Counted from the stretch's first letter, positions 10,754-64,000 are shown. The stretch: 64,000 nucleotides of DNA from an uncultured Candidatus Saccharibacteria bacterium (GCA_964512925.1 CAZEKH010000004.1:72392-136391), one strand, 5' to 3'. Program-made: numbers and translations. The notes: a model not told the origin generated them from the letters alone.

Positions 10754-12241
10754 ATGTCAGATTCTTTTGAATTTAAAACTTTAACAGAACTGCGGAATTT
10801 GCTGGATTCCAAGTCCATATCTTCTTTGGAATTGACCAAATATTTTTTGTCGCGCATAAAAAATTTGGATAAAGATTTAAATTCTTTTGTGACTGTTTCA
10901 GAAGAAGAGGCTTTGAAAAATGCCAAGGATGCGGACGAGTTTATAAATTCGCCTGGTGAAAATCCTTTTTTATGCGGTATTCCTTATGCTTCAAAAGATT
11001 TATTTTTGACCAAAGGCGTGCGCACCACTGCTTCTTCAAAAATATTGGATAACTATATACCGCCTTATGATGGAACTGTGACAAAAAAACTAAAAGATCA
11101 AAAGTCAGTTTTGCTGGGTAAAACCAATTTAGACGAATTTGCCCACGGCTCTTCTACTGAAACTTCAGCTTATGGGGTGTCAAAAAATCCTTGGGATAAA
11201 AATCGCATACCGGGAGGTTCTTCGGGTGGTTCTACTTCAGCTGTGGGAGGCGGACTTGCTCCTTGGGCAACAGCTACGGAAACAGGCGGCAGTATCCGTC
11301 AGCCGGCTTCTTTGTGCGGGCTTTCTGGCTGGAAGCCTACCTACGGGCGTGTTTCAAGATTTGGAGTCATAGCTATGGGTAGTTCTTTGGACTGTCCTGG
11401 CGCGGTTGCGCATACAGTTGAGGATTTGGCTCATTTGGCTGAAATAATGTCAGGACTGGACCCGAAGGATTCCACTACCGGACCGGTTGAGGTACCGCGC
11501 TTTTCCAAATCTTTAAACCAAAACATTAAAGGAAAAAAATTGGGTTTGCCCAAACAATATTTTGTAGATGGTATGGAGGAGGGTGTCAAGATAAGGGTTT
11601 TGGAAGCGGTTGATGAGCTTAAAAAACTTGGCGCTGAAATTGTTGAAGTTGACCTGCCGAACACCAGATACGGGTCTTTAGTTTATGCTATTATTTGTCC
11701 TTCGGAAGTTTCTTCAAATCTTGCGCGGTTTGATGGCATCCGCTATGGCCATAGCTCCAAGGAAGCGAAAAATCTTTTGGAAACCTATGAGAAATCCCGC
11801 GGAGAAGGTTTGGGTTTGGAGGCAAAGCGGAGGGTTTTAACAGGGACATATGTATTATCTGCCGGCTACTATGATGCGTATTATAAAAAAGCTCAAAAGG
11901 TCAGGGGGCTTATACTGCACGAATTTCAGGAAATTTTTAAGTCAGTTGACGCCCTGGTCTGCCCTTCTTCGCCAAATGTTGCGCCGAAAATCGGCACTGC
12001 CAAACAAAACCCGCTTTTTGGCTATATTGCCGACCAGCTGAACATCCCGTCCTCGCTTGCCGGCCTTCCTGCTTTGTCTGTTCCTTGCGGATTTTCTTCC
12101 CCGTCTGACGATGCTTCAGTACAGCTGCCTGTCGGCCTCCAGATCATCGGTCCTCAATGGGGAGAGCAGACAGTATTTGATATAGGTTATGCTTTTCAAA
12201 AAGTTACTGATTGGCATACCAAACATTCAACTCTTGCATAA
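10754..12241 (+). CDS. gatA: Glu/Asp-tRNA amidotransferase subunit A (amidase signature)
   Basis: Amidase signature GGSSGGS...TETGGSIRQPA. Confidence 0.9.
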   Translation: MSDSFEFKTLTELRNLLDSKSISSLELTKYFLSRIKNLDKDLNSFVTVSEEEALKNAKDADEFINSPGENPFLCGIPYASKDLFLTKGVRTTASSKILDNYIPPYDGTVTKKLKDQKSVLLGKTNLDEFAHGSSTETSAYGVSKNPWDKNRIPGGSSGGSTSAVGGGLAPWATATETGGSIRQPASLCGLSGWKPTYGRVSRFGVIAMGSSLDCPGAVAHTVEDLAHLAEIMSGLDPKDSTTGPVEVPRFSKSLNQNIKGKKLGLPKQYFVDGMEEGVKIRVLEAVDELKKLGAEIVEVDLPNTRYGSLVYAIICPSEVSSNLARFDGIRYGHSSKEAKNLLETYEKSRGEGLGLEAKRRVLTGTYVLSAGYYDAYYKKAQKVRGLILHEFQEIFKSVDALVCPSSPNVAPKIGTAKQNPLFGYIADQLNIPSSLAGLPALSVPCGFSSPSDDASVQLPVGLQIIGPQWGEQTVFDIGYAFQKVTDWHTKHSTLA

Positions 12242-12279
12242 CTAGAGAATTTTTAATTTGCAATTTTAATGAATTTTCA

Positions 12280-13830
12280 ATGAAAGAATTTACAGCTTCA
12301 ACCGAATACAAACCCGTGATTGGGTTTGAGATACATATACAGCTTGCTACCAAATCTAAGATGTTTGGCGTGGCGCACAACAACCCGGACCAGACTGAGC
12401 CGAATATGGATATAGACGAAGTTAACACGGCGCAGCCCGGGACTTTGCCTGTGGCAAACAAAGAAGCTATAAGGATGACTACAATGGTGGGGCTTGCTTT
12501 AAACTGTCAGATAGATGAGTTTAGCAAGTTTGACAGAAAACACTATTTTTACCCCGACCTGCCGAAAGGTTATCAGATTTCTCAGTATGATCAACCCATT
12601 GCGAAAAACGGGTATTTGGACATAGAGGTGAATGGAAAAATAAAGAGGATTAACATCACCAGGGGGCACCTTGAAGAAGATGCCGGGAAAAACATTCACC
12701 CAGAAGGATTGCCTTACTCTTTGGTTGATTACAACAGGGCTGGGTCAGCGCTTTTGGAAATTGTGACTGAACCGGAGATAGAAAGCGGACAGGAAGCTTA
12801 TGCGTTTTTAAGTGAGTTAAAAAATATCGTACGCTACTTGGGCGTGTCTTCCGCAGATATGGAAAAAGGAATTTTAAGGTGTGAGCCGAGCATTTCTGTG
12901 CGAAAACCTGGGGAAACCACTCTGCCAAAATATAAAGTGGAAGTAAAAAATATCAACTCTTTTCGCTTTGCCCAGGCTGCGATTGACTACGAAATCGCGC
13001 GGCAGACCGAGATTTTAAAAGACGGCGGAACGCCCAAGCAGGTTACTATGGGCTGGAACGAAAAGCTGGGAGTGACGGTTGAGCAGAGAAGCAAAGAAGA
13101 AGCAAACGACTACCGATATTTTCCGGAGCCGGATTTGCCGGTTTTACAATTTACCCAAGAGTATTTAGATGAGCTTAAAAGAAAAATGCCGGAACTGCCT
13201 GCTCAGAAAAGGCAAAGATTTTTAGAGGAATACGGTCTGCCTAAAGCGGATGTGGAAAATTTGGTTAATTGGAAAGAATTGGCGAATTATTTTGAGGAAG
13301 TGGTGAGTGAAATAGACGAATGGATCATTGTGGAAGGTCAATCGTTCGACCTCTCCCGCCCTGCGGGCACCCTCCCCACGCCTGGGGAGGGAAAAAGTGT
13401 TATTGCTTCGCAACTCTATAAAAGCGCTGTCAATTGGTGTTTGCAGGATTTTTCCGCGCTTTTAAACCAAAATCTGTGGAATCCTTCGGATTCTTCTGTA
13501 ACCCCTGAAAATTTTGCTGAGCTTTTAGTAATGATCCAGAAAGGAAAAATTTCAACTTCTGCAGCCAAACAGGTGTTTAAAGTGATGTTTGAAAAAGGCG
13601 GAGAGCCGGACAATATAGTTTCCGACCTTGGCCTGGAGCAGGTTTCAGATACAGGAGCTATTGAATCCGCTTTGGATAAAGTCATTGCCGAAAACCAAAA
13701 AGCTGTTACGGACTACAGGGCAGGCCAACAAAAGTCTTTTGGTTTTTTGGTCGGCCAGGCAATGAAAGAGCTGAAAGGTAAAGGCAACCCGCAGATTATA
13801 AACGAAATTTTAAAGAAAAAACTTTCTTAG
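12280..13830 (+). CDS. gatB: Glu/Asp-tRNA amidotransferase subunit B
   Basis: ATG at 12280 (MKEFTAS...) overlaps the gatA end. GatB core plus YqeY-like tail. It carries a GC-rich in-frame insert (see 13350-13391). Confidence 0.9.
   Translation: MKEFTASTEYKPVIGFEIHIQLATKSKMFGVAHNNPDQTEPNMDIDEVNTAQPGTLPVANKEAIRMTTMVGLALNCQIDEFSKFDRKHYFYPDLPKGYQISQYDQPIAKNGYLDIEVNGKIKRINITRGHLEEDAGKNIHPEGLPYSLVDYNRAGSALLEIVTEPEIESGQEAYAFLSELKNIVRYLGVSSADMEKGILRCEPSISVRKPGETTLPKYKVEVKNINSFRFAQAAIDYEIARQTEILKDGGTPKQVTMGWNEKLGVTVEQRSKEEANDYRYFPEPDLPVLQFTQEYLDELKRKMPELPAQKRQRFLEEYGLPKADVENLVNWKELANYFEEVVSEIDEWIIVEGQSFDLSRPAGTLPTPGEGKSVIASQLYKSAVNWCLQDFSALLNQNLWNPSDSSVTPENFAELLVMIQKGKISTSAAKQVFKVMFEKGGEPDNIVSDLGLEQVSDTGAIESALDKVIAENQKAVTDYRAGQQKSFGFLVGQAMKELKGKGNPQIINEILKKKLS
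13350..13391. repeat. GC-rich palindromic element inserted in-frame in gatB (hairpins CCCGC-CCT-GCGGG and CCCTCCCC-ACGCCT-GGGGAGGG)
   Basis: It translates to SRPAGTLPTPGEG. The second hairpin is the C-for-T variant of the CCCTCTCC-N6-GGAGAGGG core seen elsewhere in the window. Confidence 0.6.
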
Positions 13831-41766: not shown

Positions 41767-42189
41767 ATGACTGACAATATTCCTTTGGAAGAAAATATTG
41801 ATTTGGACAAAAACACAAGACTGAACAGCCTTTTGAAGTTTTTGGTTTTAACTTTTTTAGCCTCTGGTATGGTTTTGGTTGTGCTTCGGCAGATTGAGGT
41901 TTACTACCGCGATCAAATTTACATAGCCACGCAAGTAACATTGCCGGTGCATAAACAGGCCAGTAGATCAGTTGGTCAGAATATCAGTAAGTCAGATAAT
42001 CAGTTAATCAGTGGAAATGATTTATTTAAAGTATGTCCTACTGATTGGATAGTAAATAAAATGCCGGTGATAGATAAAAATCAGCCTGAGGAGTATTATA
42101 TTTTAGACGGCAAGAGGTGGGAGATTTCGGAGTTTGATGTGGGGTGGGTAAGAGAAAATTGTGATGTAAAACCTCAGGCAGTTTACTAA
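41767..42189 (+). CDS. Hypothetical protein (140 aa, one TM segment)
   Basis: Intact ORF. Confidence 0.4.
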   Translation: MTDNIPLEENIDLDKNTRLNSLLKFLVLTFLASGMVLVVLRQIEVYYRDQIYIATQVTLPVHKQASRSVGQNISKSDNQLISGNDLFKVCPTDWIVNKMPVIDKNQPEEYYILDGKRWEISEFDVGWVRENCDVKPQAVY

Positions 42190-42212: not shown

Positions 42213-42330
42213 CCCCCTCTCCTATATAGGAGAGGGGTGGGGTGAGGTTTGAGCGATGGTAATAAGACATAAGTTTAATCAATTTTTTAACATTGTTGCC
42301 TCACCCTGCCCTCTCCGAGTTTGGAGAGGG
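42213..42330. mobile_element. MITE-like composite: two copies of the GC-rich palindromic element in inverted orientation flanking a 51-bp AT-rich core
   Basis: Left copy CCCCTCTCC-TATATA-GGAGAGGGG-TGGGGTGAGG. Right copy CCTCACCCTG-CCCTCTCC-GAGTT-TGGAGAGGG. Confidence 0.55.
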
Positions 42331-42384: not shown

Positions 42385-44064
42385 ATGGCGAAAAATAACA
42401 ATTCCAGCAAAACAAAAAAAAATCCTATAAAAACCAAATTTATCTTTGTTTCCGGTGGGGTTATATCCGGCATTGGTAAGGGGATTACTTCGGCTTCTGT
42501 GGGAGCGATTTTGAAGTCCAAAGGTTTTTCCGTTAGCGCGGTTAAAGTGGATATGTATTTAAACCAGGACGCGGGAACCATAAGGCCGCAGGAGCACGGG
42601 GAAGTTTTTGTGACTGAAGATGGGATGGAAACAGACCAGGACTTGGGACACTATGAGAGGTTTATCGGGCAAAATATCACCAAGGCAAACTACATCACAA
42701 CCGGACAGATATATGCGGAAGTTTTGAGAAAAGAGCGCGCGTTTGAGTACGGCGGAGAGGATGTGGAAGCTATCCCTCACGTGACGGATGAAATCATCCG
42801 CAGGTGGAGCGTGGCCGGCAAGGGCAATGATTTTTGTTTGGTGGAGCTTGGCGGAACTGTTGGAGAATACCAAAACGGCATCTTTTTTGAAGCCACGCGT
42901 ATAATGAAACTGCGAGATCCTGGGTCAGTATTACATATTCATGTGGCTTATTTGCCCATCCCTTCGTATTTAGGCGAGATGAAGTCTAAACCGGTTCAGC
43001 AGTCAGTCAGAGTTTTAAATAGTATGGGCATTGAGCCGGATATAATAGTCGGACGTTCTTCCGTACCCATAGACGACCGCCGCAAAGAACGCGTGGCTTT
43101 GTTTTGCAATGTGGCAAAAAATTATGTCCTTTCCAATCCCGACGTCTCCAGCATTTACGAAGTGCCTGTTATATTAGAACAACAAAAAGCCGGAGAATTG
43201 ATCTTGGAAAAATTTGGCATTAAACCCAGAAAACAAGATTTGAAAGAATGGAAAGCTTTGGTTTCCCGCATTAAAAATATCAAAAAAGAAGTTAATATTG
43301 CTGTGGTAGGAAAGTACTTTGGCGTAGGGAAATTCCAGTTATCGGATTCATATGTTTCAGTGATTGAATCAATAAAACACGCAGCCTGGCAAAACAAGGT
43401 TAAGGCTAAACTGACCTGGATAGACTCCGTAAAAGTAGAAAAACAGGGCGCTAAGAGCGTTTTAAAAGGTTTTGCGGGCATTGTAGTTCCTGGGGGGTTT
43501 GGCAGCCGTGGCACAGAAGGGATGATTGAAGCAGTTAAATACGCCAGAGAAAACAATATCCCATACCTGGGACTTTGCTATGGAATGCAGATGGCAACCA
43601 TAGAGTTTGCTAGAAATGTTGCAAATTTAAAAAATGCCAACACCACGGAAGTAAATAAAAATACTCCATACCCGGTCATCCATATAATGCCTGAGCAGGA
43701 AAAAATGCTTTTAAATCGCGAGTACGGGGCAACTATGCGTCTGGGTGGTTGGGATTGTCTTATTAAGCGGGGGACTAAGGCTGAGAAAGCTTATTTGGAT
43801 GGCGGCTGGATCAAGAAGTTAGGCAGACCAAGGATTTCCGAACGTCACCGTCATCGTTATGAGTTTAACAACGAATTTAGAGAGCAGCTGGAAAAAGCTG
43901 GGTTAGTCATTGCCGGCACCACGCCGGACGGCAAACTTGTGGAAATAGTTGAACTTAAAGACCATCCCTTTTTTGTCGCCAGCCAGTTCCACCCGGAATT
44001 TTTATCCCGGCCTCTTTCACCGCATCCTTTGTTCGCGGGATTTATGAAAGTGGTAGTAAAATAA
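42385..44064 (+). CDS. pyrG: CTP synthase
   Basis: Synthetase domain plus glutamine amidotransferase domain (GLCYGMQ). Confidence 0.95.
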   Translation: MAKNNNSSKTKKNPIKTKFIFVSGGVISGIGKGITSASVGAILKSKGFSVSAVKVDMYLNQDAGTIRPQEHGEVFVTEDGMETDQDLGHYERFIGQNITKANYITTGQIYAEVLRKERAFEYGGEDVEAIPHVTDEIIRRWSVAGKGNDFCLVELGGTVGEYQNGIFFEATRIMKLRDPGSVLHIHVAYLPIPSYLGEMKSKPVQQSVRVLNSMGIEPDIIVGRSSVPIDDRRKERVALFCNVAKNYVLSNPDVSSIYEVPVILEQQKAGELILEKFGIKPRKQDLKEWKALVSRIKNIKKEVNIAVVGKYFGVGKFQLSDSYVSVIESIKHAAWQNKVKAKLTWIDSVKVEKQGAKSVLKGFAGIVVPGGFGSRGTEGMIEAVKYARENNIPYLGLCYGMQMATIEFARNVANLKNANTTEVNKNTPYPVIHIMPEQEKMLLNREYGATMRLGGWDCLIKRGTKAEKAYLDGGWIKKLGRPRISERHRHRYEFNNEFREQLEKAGLVIAGTTPDGKLVEIVELKDHPFFVASQFHPEFLSRPLSPHPLFAGFMKVVVK

Positions 44065-56471: not shown

Positions 56472-56548
56472 ATTCCCTTTTAAGTGATAAAAAAACGTGG
56501 TGGATAAATAAAGTTTTAAATATATAGAAACATAACCTCTCTCTAACT

Positions 56549-56567
56549 CTCTCCAAGTATTGGAGAG
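56549..56567 (+). promoter_or_regulatory. Conserved hairpin CTCTCCAAG-TA-TTGGAGAG immediately upstream of fmt (same element as at rplK)
   Basis: 18 of 19 nt identical to 30480-30498. Confidence 0.5.
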
Positions 56568-56577
56568 AGAAACTATA

Positions 56578-57522
56578 ATGAAATCTATGAGAATTGTTTT
56601 TTTTGGCACATCAAATGTGGCTTTACCGGTTTTGGAAAATCTTTCCCGCCAGCACGAGATTGTTGCTGTGGTAACCAGGCCGGACGCAAAAGTCGGCAGG
56701 AGCCAGGAACTTTCCGAAAGCCCTGTTTCGGTTTTGGCCAATGAGATGAAAATCAAAGTTCTAAAACCTGAGATGGTAAAAAATAACAATATTTTCAGGC
56801 TGGAACTTCAGGATTTAAACGCTGATATTTTTGTCGTGGTTTCTTATGGGCATATTTTGCCTTTGGAAATAATCAATATACCGAGGCTAAAAACTTTGAA
56901 TGTGCATTTTTCTTTGCTTCCCAAATACCGCGGCGCCTCCCCTATTCAGGCCGCGCTTTTAAACGGAGAGACCGAAACAGGCACCAGCATATTTATTTTA
57001 GACGAAAAGATGGACAGAGGACCCATCCTCAGGCAGGAAAAAATCGCCATTGATCCAGACGACAACTTTTTGTCTTTGTCGGAAAAGCTGGCTGCCCTTT
57101 CGGGAAAAATAATTGTTGACACTATTTATCACTACGACAACGGCGATATTAAACCAATTTTTCAGGACGAAAATTCGGCCACCTATTGTAAGACCTTATC
57201 CAAAGCCGATGGCAAGATAGACTGGTCAAAAACGGCTTTGGAAATCTATAACCAGTTTAGGGCATTTTTCCCTTGGCCAGGAGTTTGGACAGAGTGGAAT
57301 AAAAAGAAGGTTAAAGTGCTTGAATGCATTGCTACAAATCCAGATACTATTAAAGCCACAAATGCCTACGAATTTGGCCAGGTGCTGGAAAATGGAGCGG
57401 TGCTTTGCGGGCAAAATACATTTTTACAAATCAATTCGCTTCAGCTAGAGGGAAAAAAAGAAACAAAAATCGCTGACTTTTTAAACGGCTACTCGGATTT
57501 CGTAGGAAGCAAACTAAACTAA
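56578..57522 (+). CDS. fmt: Methionyl-tRNA formyltransferase
   Basis: MRIVFFGTS...HFSLLPKYRGASPIQ. Confidence 0.9.
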   Translation: MKSMRIVFFGTSNVALPVLENLSRQHEIVAVVTRPDAKVGRSQELSESPVSVLANEMKIKVLKPEMVKNNNIFRLELQDLNADIFVVVSYGHILPLEIINIPRLKTLNVHFSLLPKYRGASPIQAALLNGETETGTSIFILDEKMDRGPILRQEKIAIDPDDNFLSLSEKLAALSGKIIVDTIYHYDNGDIKPIFQDENSATYCKTLSKADGKIDWSKTALEIYNQFRAFFPWPGVWTEWNKKKVKVLECIATNPDTIKATNAYEFGQVLENGAVLCGQNTFLQINSLQLEGKKETKIADFLNGYSDFVGSKLN

Positions 57523-61199: not shown

Positions 61200-62057
61200 T
61201 TAATGTAATATTATTTTTACTACTTCCACCAAGCCCCAAATAGCGAGGCCTAGGAAAGCTAAAGTGCCGAGAAAAGAAATCCAGGAGTTTTTTACAAGTT
61301 TGACTGTTTTAGCAGGGTTTAAAAAAAGAGCAATATTTAAAAGCGTATGAGCGCCTATAACTCCAATGCTAAATCCGAGCACATTGACTATGGAAAAGAG
61401 CGGCACATAGCCGGCAAAGTCGTCTAAACCCAGTATAAAAGGAACAGTAAAAGAAAAAAAGAGTAACTTTTTCCAAGGCAAGGCGGATGAGCCTTTCATC
61501 TTTTCTCCCAAATCCGGCAAAACCTTTGAAAGTATCGGCCTGATATATTTTAAAAGAGAGCTTAAAAACTTGTCTAAACCTAAAAATATATATTTTTTAA
61601 ACTTTCCTTCCGCTTGCCAATTGGAAAAATGTTCCAGTCCTGAGTAAGCTAGCTCAAAGAGCACCAAAGAAGCGATAAGAACCATTATTGCCAAAAGCCA
61701 TTCAATTTCTTTGAAAAATGTCCAAACTATCAAAATAATTGCCGTGCCGAGGGCGTTGCCCACGGCTGTGCCGATTTCTATGGCTACGCGATTTTTCCAG
61801 CCTGGGTTTGTTGCCATCAGCCTGCCCATAAAAATGGCAAAGTCTACGGCCGTTTTAAGATAAATGGTTCCGCCTATCAGGATATCGTACCAACGGATTT
61901 GTAAAAGAATATCCTGTCCCCGGGTAATCCCGTTTAAGCCTAAAACAGTTAAGGTTAAAAGCCCTGTTAATACAAAAAAAACCACCACTGTCATACTTAA
62001 TGGTATAACTTGGCTATACAGAAAAGGTTCGTTGGTTTTTTGGGCAGGGTTTTGCAT
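61200..62057 (-). CDS. Polytopic integral membrane protein (TerC/DUF475-like)
   Basis: 7-8 TM segments. Confidence 0.4.
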   Translation of the reverse strand: MQNPAQKTNEPFLYSQVIPLSMTVVVFFVLTGLLTLTVLGLNGITRGQDILLQIRWYDILIGGTIYLKTAVDFAIFMGRLMATNPGWKNRVAIEIGTAVGNALGTAIILIVWTFFKEIEWLLAIMVLIASLVLFELAYSGLEHFSNWQAEGKFKKYIFLGLDKFLSSLLKYIRPILSKVLPDLGEKMKGSSALPWKKLLFFSFTVPFILGLDDFAGYVPLFSIVNVLGFSIGVIGAHTLLNIALFLNPAKTVKLVKNSWISFLGTLAFLGLAIWGLVEVVKIILH

Positions 62058-62065
62058 ATTGAGAT

Positions 62066-63229
62066 TTAAAAATATTTTTTATCTTTTAACTTCTCAGGCA
62101 GAAAGCTGGCGGATTGGTCATCGGAAGAACCATATCCCAGATCTTTCATCAGTTGGGTCGGGGCATTCCTTATATGAAGGGGTACGGGAAGATTGCTGAA
62201 ATTTTTGACGTCAGCCTGGGCTGCGCGAAGAGCGTCATAAGCAGAGCGGTCTTTTTTGCAGTTTGCCAGGTAAGCGGCGCCGTGGCTGAGGTTTATGGCG
62301 CATTCGGGGTAGCCGATTTTTTCACAGGCCGCAAAAACCGCAGTAGCAACCACCAAAGCAGTAGGCTGTGCCAGTCCGATGTCTTCTGAAGCAAATATTA
62401 CCATTCTTCTGGCGATAAATAAAGGGTCTTCGCCGGATTCCACCATTCTCGTCAGATAGTAGATTGCGGCATCTGTTTGTCCCGCGCGCATAGATTTGAT
62501 GAAAGCAGAAATAGTGTTGTAATGTTCTTCTCCGGCTTTGTCGTATCGCAAAGTTTTTGACTGTAAGGTTTGTTTGAGATTTTCAAGAGTGACAGACCCG
62601 TACAGGCTGATACAATTTTCCAACATTGACAAAACTTGCCTGGCATCCCCTCCTGACATTGACACTAGCCACTGTTTTTCACCCTCTCCGATATCGGAGA
62701 GGGTTGGGGTGAGGTTACGGATAGCATTATTTATTATTTCTCCAATTTCTTCCTCATTTAACTCATTTAGCACAAAAACCCTGCAGCGGGACAAAAGCGC
62801 GGGGATGACTTCAAAGCTCGGGTTTTCCGTGGTTGCGCCGATCGAAGTCAGCTCGCCAGACTCTACATAAGGCAAAAGGAAATCCTGCTGAGCTTTGTTA
62901 AAACGGTGGATTTCGTCCAGAAAAAGAATCTTGGGTGTATTGGACAGATAAGACTCATTGGACTTATAAGATTTATTTTCAATTATTTTCCTGATATCTT
63001 CTTTCCCAGCGCTGACTGCGGAGAGTTCAAAAAATTCAGCATTCAGTGCTTTTGCATATATCCTCGCCAGGGTGGTTTTGCCCACGCCCGGCGGTCCCCA
63101 CAGCAAAAAACTAAACAAATGTTTTTGTTCTATGGCTTTTCTTATGGGTCCGTCCTCCCCTACCAAATGCTTTTGACCAATATAATCTTCAAGGGTTTGG
63201 GGTCTGAGTTGTTGCGCTAGTGGCTGCAT
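62066..63229 (-). CDS. rarA: Replication-associated recombination protein RarA/MgsA (AAA+)
   Basis: Walker A GPPGVGKTT, Walker B LFLDEIH and a GGDAR arginine finger. Contains the in-frame palindromic element. Confidence 0.85.
   Translation of the reverse strand: MQPLAQQLRPQTLEDYIGQKHLVGEDGPIRKAIEQKHLFSFLLWGPPGVGKTTLARIYAKALNAEFFELSAVSAGKEDIRKIIENKSYKSNESYLSNTPKILFLDEIHRFNKAQQDFLLPYVESGELTSIGATTENPSFEVIPALLSRCRVFVLNELNEEEIGEIINNAIRNLTPTLSDIGEGEKQWLVSMSGGDARQVLSMLENCISLYGSVTLENLKQTLQSKTLRYDKAGEEHYNTISAFIKSMRAGQTDAAIYYLTRMVESGEDPLFIARRMVIFASEDIGLAQPTALVVATAVFAACEKIGYPECAINLSHGAAYLANCKKDRSAYDALRAAQADVKNFSNLPVPLHIRNAPTQLMKDLGYGSSDDQSASFLPEKLKDKKYF
62681..62714. repeat. Palindromic element ACCCTCTCC-GATATC-GGAGAGGGT-TGGGGTGAGG in-frame inside rarA
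   Basis: Encodes TPTLSDIGEG just upstream of the GGDAR motif; same family as 42213-42247. Confidence 0.65.
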
Positions 63230-63747: not shown

Positions 63748-63771
63748 TACCCTCTCCTCGCCAGGAGAGGG
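63748..63771. repeat. Intergenic copy of the palindromic element ACCCTCTCC-TCGCCA-GGAGAGGGT
   Basis: Perfect 9-bp stem with a 6-nt loop. Confidence 0.65.
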
Positions 63772-63783
63772 TAAAAATTAAAG

Positions 63784-64000
63784 TTATATCTGGGTTAAGT
63801 CTATGGTTTGGTCTATGCGGATTTGGGAGACAAAATCCGGAATATGGGAAACCATAAGAAATGCGCCTTCGTAGGAGTCTAAAGCCTTAGCTATGACAGG
63901 CAAGTGGCGGAAGTTAATGTGGTTAGTGGGTTCGTCTAAAATCAAAAGTCCCGGTTTCATAAGTACCAGCCTGCAAAAAGCCAAAAGGCCTTTTTGACCT
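63784..64000 (-). CDS. ABC transporter ATP-binding protein, 3' part (the 5' end lies beyond the window)
   Basis: Walker B LILDEPTNHI. Confidence 0.6.
   Translation of the reverse strand, partial: GQKGLLAFCRLVLMKPGLLILDEPTNHINFRHLPVIAKALDSYEGAFLMVSHIPDFVSQIRIDQTIDLTQI

Follow-up and report, generated by a model that had tools for sequence, protein, structure and literature searches.

Triplex-forming repeats of the BoxC/PIT/TMECO class have been known since the 1990s. Holder et al. (2015, Nucleic Acids Research 43:10126, PMC4666352) describe them under the name TMECO, give BoxC and, after Hoyne and Maher (2000), PIT element as earlier names, and define them by the pattern 5'-CCCTCNCCC N3-6 GGGNGAGGG N3 GGGNGAGGG-3', in which the stems are 9 nt long and no more than one triplet is mismatched. 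Escherichia coli K-12 has 23 copies, which are 'always located intergenically' with no fixed relation to genes, include five tails-inward inverted pairs and lie in surroundings of raised local sequence variability; they have neither promoter nor terminator activity, no linked transposase or integrase and no known function (PMC4666352). E. coli oligonucleotides with 9 triads form a triplex in vitro by circular dichroism and nuclear magnetic resonance (NMR), with melting at 70-82 C, and NMR ruled out a quadruplex for this motif (PMC4666352). That paper covers 262 proteobacterial genomes and reports no association with phages or plasmids. Another described group of repeats, the Rickettsia palindromic elements (RPEs; Ogata et al. 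2000), lie in frame in unrelated housekeeping genes, leave the gene intact and place their peptide at a fold-compatible site, according to the account given in PMC10969869. Here we describe a palindromic element residing in the rarA gene of a 64,000-nt stretch of DNA from an uncultured bacterium, labelled Candidatus Saccharibacteria (GCA_964512925.1 CAZEKH010000004.1:72392-136391; hereafter the window). Judged by its sequence, the element is an 8-triad copy of the known BoxC/PIT/TMECO motif, a class II G/C-rich intrastrand triplex motif by the ITxF definition of Holder et al. (2015), and not a new element. What is new is the context, namely a genome of the Candidate Phyla Radiation (CPR), an in-frame site in a conserved gene, recurrence of such inserts in the same loops of different lineages and conservation at the level of the bases.

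The element begins at 62681-62704 with ACCCTCTCCGATATCGGAGAGGGT, a perfect 24-nt palindrome of a kind expected by chance about 0.006 times per 64 kb at the base composition of the window (an arithmetic estimate), and TGGGGTGAGG stands directly after it at 62705-62714. An earlier note on this DNA had reported such a palindrome, followed by a 10-nt tail identical to 42238-42247, and both are borne out by the sequence; the note had not recognised that this tail is the third strand of a known motif. On the plus strand the pyrimidine arm CCCTCTCC (stem 1, 62682..62689) pairs with 62696-62703. These bases are stem 2, the purine arm GGAGAGGG, which would be the middle strand of the predicted triplex and is identical to an arm in Table 1 of the E. 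coli TMECO paper. Between them lies loop 1, GATATC (62690..62695), and after them come loop 2, TTG (62704..62706; TTA in E. coli type A), and the third strand GGGTGAGG (62707..62714), which mirrors the purine arm and forms the core of the tail. The bases A62681 and T62704 lengthen the palindrome to its 24 nt. With the third strand antiparallel, 8 of 8 triads are allowed purine-motif triads (G·G, A·A, T·A) and none is mismatched. The class II definition asks for stems of 6-15 nt and a loop of 1-6 nt, and here the stems are 8 nt, perfect and separated by 6 nt, with the third strand following TTG. The same succession of pyrimidine arm, purine arm, 3-nt second loop and mirror G-rich third strand is seen in E. 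coli, where copy no. 17 reads CCCTCTCCC-TGA-GGGAGAGGG-TTA-GGGTGAGGG (PMC4666352): the core here is GGAGAGGG-TTG-GGGTGAGG, that of E. coli GGGAGAGGG-TTA-GGGTGAGGG, and from arm through loop to third strand it differs by one loop base from type A. In both systems the motif is multi-copy and dispersed, occurs as tails-inward inverted pairs and, here as far as the 64 kb of the window reach, has no adjoining transposase.

In a folding calculation that covers Watson-Crick pairs only, the DNA hairpin of the rarA copy reaches -11.1 kcal/mol (z = -4.2), and the RNA hairpin of the sense strand -20 kcal/mol (z = -4.4). As single-stranded DNA the plus strand, which is the rarA template, can fold into the hairpin and, to judge from the E. 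coli oligonucleotides, could fold into the triplex too. In the rarA mRNA the hairpin alone can form; purine-motif triplexes do not form in RNA (PMC4666352). The GATATC of loop 1, singled out earlier as EcoRV-like, is indeed present, but is incidental: loop 1 differs between copies, reading TATATA, GAGTTT and TCGCCA elsewhere and GAAATC in the homologue P0002 discussed below. The motif also departs from its surroundings in composition, its GC content of 62% exceeding that of rarA (45%) and of the window (40%), and it uses the rare Leu codon CTC twice (6.9% of Leu codons).

The host gene (62066..63229, minus strand) is an intact open reading frame (ORF) of 387 codons. Its product has the Pfam domains AAA, AAA_assoc_2 and MgsA_C, matches E. 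coli RarA (PDB 3PVS) with E = 7e-88, and contains the Walker A and B motifs GPPGVGKTT and LFLDEIHRF together with SRCR and GGDAR, which together with the MgsA C-terminal domain identify it as RarA/MgsA. Its closest homologues are 70-73% identical and labelled Candidatus Doudnabacteria or Patescibacteria, and the host genome is that of a Patescibacteria/CPR bacterium. Read on the minus strand across the element, the protein runs N172-LTPTLSDIGEG-E184; the 33-34 nt of the motif thus encode the 11 residues L173-G183, and the frame is kept with the peptide TLSDIGEG as had been noted. Five of the six reading frames through the element are open. The GGDAR motif (194-197), whose GDAR begins 11 codons past the element, is the sensor-2 motif of the AAA+ lid and not the arginine finger for which it had been taken; we take the finger to be the SRC arginine R148, as in clamp-loader-type AAA+ proteins. 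An AlphaFold2 model based on 50 homologues (mean predicted local distance difference test, pLDDT, 84.7) places L173-G183 in a coil (173-181) between predicted lid helices 159-172 and 182-192, with a pLDDT of 68 for the 171-180 block against 92 and 91 on its flanks. According to this model the element sits in an exposed surface loop of the AAA+ lid. In the alignment to E. coli MgsA it lies opposite a variable stretch, EDKTRGYGGQDIVLPDET, which is 4 residues longer in E. coli.

The residues encoded by the element are not conserved RarA sequence. Of 198 CPR RarA homologues, 145 have 13 residues between a conserved 'II' and a conserved 'WL', compared with 20 in the RarA of the window (P0001), and 53 exceed the mode by at least 4. 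The element residues are lacking in 196 of the 198. The single other homologue with the peptide, P0002, comes from a Logan assembly (DNA locus L001) and has LTPTLS(E)IGEG, with NLTPTLSEIGEGE. Across the element 40 of 42 nt are identical between the two genes, which are 71% identical over their whole length, and this is the best 42-nt segment in the gene (mean 29.9 identities, sd 4.0). At identical residues where a synonymous choice exists, the same codon is used at 12 of 13 positions inside the element and at 124 of 273 (45%) outside it (P = 6e-4). Of the two base differences, one falls in loop 1 and the other just past the purine arm; both lie outside the stems and loop 2, so that the three stems and loop 2 are unchanged. 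The bases of the element are thereby shown to be conserved well above the synonymous background. The proposal that a dispersed palindromic element resides here in coding sequence is thus upheld: the residues are not conserved among the homologues, and in their sole recurrence the same codons are kept.

The window itself holds further copies. A triplex finder was set to look for an all-pyrimidine stem of at least 7 nt that is followed, 3-9 nt on, by its perfect complement and then, a further 1-5 nt on, by a mirror third strand in which one mismatch was tolerated. It returned four matches in the 64 kb (42214-42248 plus, 42299-42330 minus, 56536-56569 minus and 62682-62714 plus) and none in 30 shuffles; a relaxed version run over the whole window, including its other genes, found no degenerate copies beyond these four, and none in 20 shuffles. 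The simpler pattern CCTCTCC-N6-GGAGAGG occurs four times (42216, 42310, 62683, 63751) vs 0 in 100 shuffles, and the exact 10-mer tail in two places, 42238-42247 and 62705-62714. Of the four motifs only the rarA copy is coding, the other three being intergenic. Two of these, CCCTCTCC-TATATA-GGAGAGGG-GTG-GGGTGAGG at 42215..42247 on the plus strand (finder span 42214-42248) and CCCTCTCC-AAACTC-GGAGAGGG-CA-GGGTGAGG at 42299..42330 on the minus strand, form a tails-inward inverted pair like those of E. coli; the copy at 42215 is flanked by an ORF at 41767..42189 and by one of 559 residues at 42385..44064, which from its sequence we take to be a putative CTP synthase (pyrG). The third, on the minus strand at 56536..56569, is a variant, CTCTCTCC-AATACTT-GGAGAGAG-TTA-GAGAGAGG, in which the third strand is altered in step with the stem. 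A hairpin-only relative without a third strand, CCCTCTCC-TCGCCA-GGAGAGGG, lies in intergenic DNA at 63750..63771 on the plus strand. An Rfam scan of the whole window at gathering thresholds gave no matches.

In other lineages the same loop holds comparable sequences. For this comparison at the DNA level we used 80 RarA loci from Joint Genome Institute (JGI) metagenomes, chosen without regard to inserts, together with five selected homologues, and found independent GC-rich hairpins in the RarA loop at varying offsets and in both orientations. Locus L202 has CCTCCCC-TAAAATA-GGGGAGG-GTA-GGTGGGG, L204 has CCCCTCC-TAATATA-GGAGGGG-CTA-GGGGAGG plus a second motif on the other strand, L122 has CCCCCTCC..GGAGGGGG-A-GGGGGTGG, L155 a two-sided motif, and L160 a 30-nt perfect palindrome without a third strand. 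In every triplex-type loop insert the third strand mirrors the purine arm of its own lineage, and such covariation favours the view that what is propagated is the three-strand architecture. The varying offsets point to a region that tolerates inserts and not to one exact target. Motifs were also found at two other variable spots of RarA, namely the N-terminal linker (P0048) and the C-terminal tail (P0002).

The interdomain linker of GatB presents a similar picture. It measures 11 residues in 66 of 120 CPR homologues and is at least 4 residues longer in 44, and many of the inserts resemble translated repeats; the gatB of locus L328 has two in-frame motifs, one of them a canonical 9-nt copy, CCCTCTCCC-TTT-GGGAGAGGG-TCG-GGGTGAGGG. 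GatB linkers with such inserts indicate that the phenomenon is general in these genomes, in which several sites, the RarA lid loop among them, tolerate inserts. An enrichment specific to RarA was considered and dropped, since GatB linkers behave alike; in the 80 loci there were 2 motif sites in 97 kb of rarA vs 0 in 274 kb of other ORFs (P about 0.07 by an arithmetic estimate, suggestive but short of significance), and a general count of GC-rich hairpins is dominated by chance hairpins in conserved coding sequence. A search of the available literature for such inserts in CPR proteins found none.

Beyond these lineages, we scanned one genome per species (596 Gb) for CCTCACCC N1-4 CCCTCTCC N4-8 GGAGAGGG, which has 24 fixed bases and for which about 0.08 chance matches are expected by an arithmetic estimate. 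This 24-base core was found in at least 154 copies in at least 120 stretches. The matches listed include Proteobacteria (Pseudomonas, Xanthomonas, Enterobacter, Rhodopseudomonas), cyanobacteria, Planctomycetota, Dehalococcoidia (Chloroflexota), Verrucomicrobiota, Bacteroidota, Acidobacteriota, Omnitrophica and a metagenome-assembled genome of Bifidobacterium, and among them the neighbouring sequences are unrelated and inverted pairs are common. The range of the core is wider than the 262 proteobacterial genomes of Holder et al. (2015). The core was also seen in at least 120 stretches of IMG/VR viral contigs (loci L206 onward), which may include host DNA flanking prophages.

Taken together, we consider it probable that the rarA element is a copy of the BoxC/TMECO repeat that is tolerated in a surface loop in the manner of an RPE, and whose bases are kept by something other than selection at the protein level. 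A repeat copy would have entered rarA in frame, by insertion or replacement in the variable lid loop, rather than arising in place, and would be tolerated because it lies in an exposed loop of variable length and because five of the six frames through the element are open. When the DNA is single-stranded, the G-rich third strand may lie in the major groove of the hairpin. What holds the bases would not be selection on the peptide but selection on this nucleic-acid structure, or else homogenisation with sister copies or re-acquisition from them. As a working view, the element may be a structure-dependent selfish or near-neutral repeat with no role at the level of the protein.

A number of observations weigh against this explanation and have to be set beside it. 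The strict 9-nt TMECO pattern is missed, the outermost C/G being absent from all three stems (CCCTCTCCg, cGGAGAGGG, GGGTGAGGt); the motif is thus one triad short, its inner 8 positions and 3-nt loop 2 matching. Footprinting with dimethyl sulphate showed no triplex protection in cells (PMC4666352). The term 'insertion' holds only in part: the net gain is 7 codons (21 nt) for a motif of 33 nt, so that some loop sequence must have been replaced, and the rarA copy has neither a target-site duplication nor a terminal repeat. As the E. coli MgsA loop is 4 residues longer, replacement within an existing loop fits equally with insertion. A search of a collection of 5.8 billion proteins with P0001 and P0002 as queries returned no close relative with an empty site, the nearest being at most about 77% identical overall, so that insertion is inferred and not observed. 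The two carriers of the element are also not sisters, and the copy that they share is puzzling. Outside the loop they are 75.1% identical, the window protein ranks 188 of 197 among the relatives of P0002, and P0002 has 84-85% identity to P0121, P0126 and P0097, in which the loop is short; no larger recombinant patch common to the two was found, the rank of the window protein being between 129 and 195 of 197 whichever sub-region is taken, the flanks of the loop included. Three scenarios remain for the shared copy: an ancient insertion that has stayed unchanged in these two genes and was lost many times elsewhere, two separate acquisitions at one site, or the transfer of a patch of about 48 nt. 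Under any of them the bases would have been kept or regenerated by something other than the peptide.

The conservation of bases above the synonymous background between two distant genes would also be expected if the element were selected in cis on the mRNA, its 10-bp GC-rich hairpin near the boundary of ATPase core and lid slowing ribosomes or stabilising the transcript. The stability of the sense-strand RNA hairpin speaks for such a role, as does the variant at 56536-56569, in whose hairpin the likely ribosome-binding sequence of the following ORF, probably fmt, is paired. We nonetheless regard it as unlikely, because 145 of the 198 RarA homologues are without any insert, the inserts of other lineages vary in loop offset and occur in either orientation, and the third strand, for which an RNA hairpin has no need, is conserved and changes with the arm. 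Purine-motif triplexes, as said, do not form in RNA, and the E. coli motif resides in intergenic DNA without a fixed relation to genes (PMC4666352). A further view takes the element to be of the REP/MITE type (repetitive extragenic palindromic sequence or miniature inverted-repeat transposable element), moved by a Y1/RAYT (REP-associated tyrosine transposase) enzyme that recognises a hairpin in single-stranded DNA, with the rarA copy as a transposition event. The motif is a short palindromic dispersed repeat with inverted pairs, its core is abundant in viral contigs, and at L204 a RAYT-like Y1_Tnp gene (PF01797, 208 residues, 1515-2141) stands directly 3' of a rarA with several hairpin inserts. 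However, tblastn with this Y1 protein gave no match in the window, which covers 64 kb of the genome, the hairpins that flank the transposase at L204 (GTCAAAGGGAATCTTTGAC) are of a different family, and no GTAG-type guide lies beside the motif. The lack of a transposase or integrase near the E. coli copies (PMC4666352) counts against this view too, as it does against the one we prefer. We hold transposition by such an enzyme to be improbable, to about the same degree as the mRNA role.

There is very little probability, in our judgement, that this is ordinary RarA coding sequence with a coincidental palindrome, or that the G-rich strand forms a G-quadruplex in place of a triplex-type element. 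The frame is intact and RarA proteins generally have a loop here; against coincidence stand the 33-nt match to other copies, the lack of motifs in shuffled sequence and the lack of the residues in nearly all homologues. The G-rich strand has four G runs, but the quadruplex was rejected, since these runs (GG, GGG, GGGG, GG) fail the criterion of four runs of at least 3 G; as two of them are merely GG, a two-tetrad quadruplex is the most that could form, and NMR excluded a quadruplex for the E. coli motif (PMC4666352).

Some further observations were made in the course of this work. Within rarA itself an 18-nt tandem duplication, TCTTAT-AAG-TCCAAT / TCTTAT-CTG-TCCAAT (window about 62935-62975, residues 86-98), encodes SYKSNE/SYLSNT; 'SNxSYLS'-like inserts were seen only in P0002 and P0005/P0006, making this a second indel feature common to both genes with the triplex motif. 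A gene for a membrane protein of about 285-308 residues follows rarA in the window (61200-63229) and in two distant relatives (L326, L327); the L327 copy matches Pfam TerC/DUF475. Between the close relatives L144 and L147/L149 the RarA loop shows presence and absence of an insert encoding LSPSHRHPERSRG (GTCATCCCGAGCGAAGTCGAGGGATC), another widespread imperfect-palindrome repeat. At L204 the Y1 transposase is flanked by the inverted hairpins GTGTCAAAGATTCCCTTTGACA and TGTCAAAGGGAATCTTTGACAC, a different repeat family. The gatB of the window (12211..13830) has the hairpin CCCTCCCC-ACGCCT-GGGGAGGG at 13370-13391 in the interdomain linker, where it reads TLPTPGEG, its third strand being degenerate; a second hot spot of GatB inserts follows residue ~117 of an annotated 516-residue GatB (P0199). 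The variant motif at 56536-56569 lies just upstream of an ORF (56560..57522) that reads as a putative fmt; its purine arm GGAGAGAG (56562-56569) stops 8 nt short of the ATG at 56578 and is a likely Shine-Dalgarno sequence, paired in the hairpin with CTCTCTCC, which could mask translation. The hairpin at 63750-63771 lies just 3' of the stop of an ORF ending at 63784, a putative ABC-F-type ATPase C-terminus, and at L136 (737-768) a full 9-nt triplex motif stands at the matching position after a similar C-terminus (...IDQTVDLTLL and stop).

An in-frame copy in a conserved replication/repair gene is a natural test of peptide against nucleic-acid structure, and the evidence points to the bases. It also adds to Rickettsia another lineage whose protein loops are formed in part by palindromic repeats. 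A wider proposal, which we put forward tentatively and rate as rather less likely than its opposite, is that in Patescibacteria triplex motifs and other GC-rich palindromic repeats act in the manner of RPEs, landing repeatedly and in frame in the same few tolerant loops of conserved proteins (RarA lid, GatB linker), being maintained in their bases independently of the peptide and being exchanged or re-acquired across lineages. If true, this would explain why two rarA genes that are not sisters have a near-identical copy and why the motif is present on viral contigs, and a repeat of unexplained purpose since the 1990s would become a mobile, structure-defined element shaping protein loops in reduced genomes. 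On a practical level, the inserts yield odd 'GEG/PSP'-type peptides and length variation in CPR protein families, which can mislead alignment and annotation.

How the locus stands relative to described systems may be put as follows. With REP and REPIN sequences the element has in common that short palindromes, often in inverted pairs, occur in many dispersed copies; it differs in having no GTAG-like 5' guide and no RAYT in the window, and in a sequence that is conserved across phyla and not lineage-specific. With BoxC/TMECO it shares, beyond the architecture, multiple copies including an inverted pair (four motifs in 64 kb, the pair at 42215-42247 and 42299-42330). The hosts differ, a Patescibacteria/CPR genome of about 40% GC here and a proteobacterium in the case of E. 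coli, and so does the placement, the rarA copy lying in frame within a conserved gene whereas all 23 copies of E. coli K-12 are intergenic. RPEs, in the account of PMC10969869, are about 100-150 bp long, restricted to Rickettsia and endowed with family-specific peptides, whereas the rarA element has 33 nt, a triplex-type third strand and a core that is found in many phyla, and no sequence relationship between the two was found. In their manner of residence the two are alike, however: a palindromic repeat lies in frame at a fold-compatible loop of a housekeeping gene, here rarA and in relatives gatB, and the reading frame is kept.

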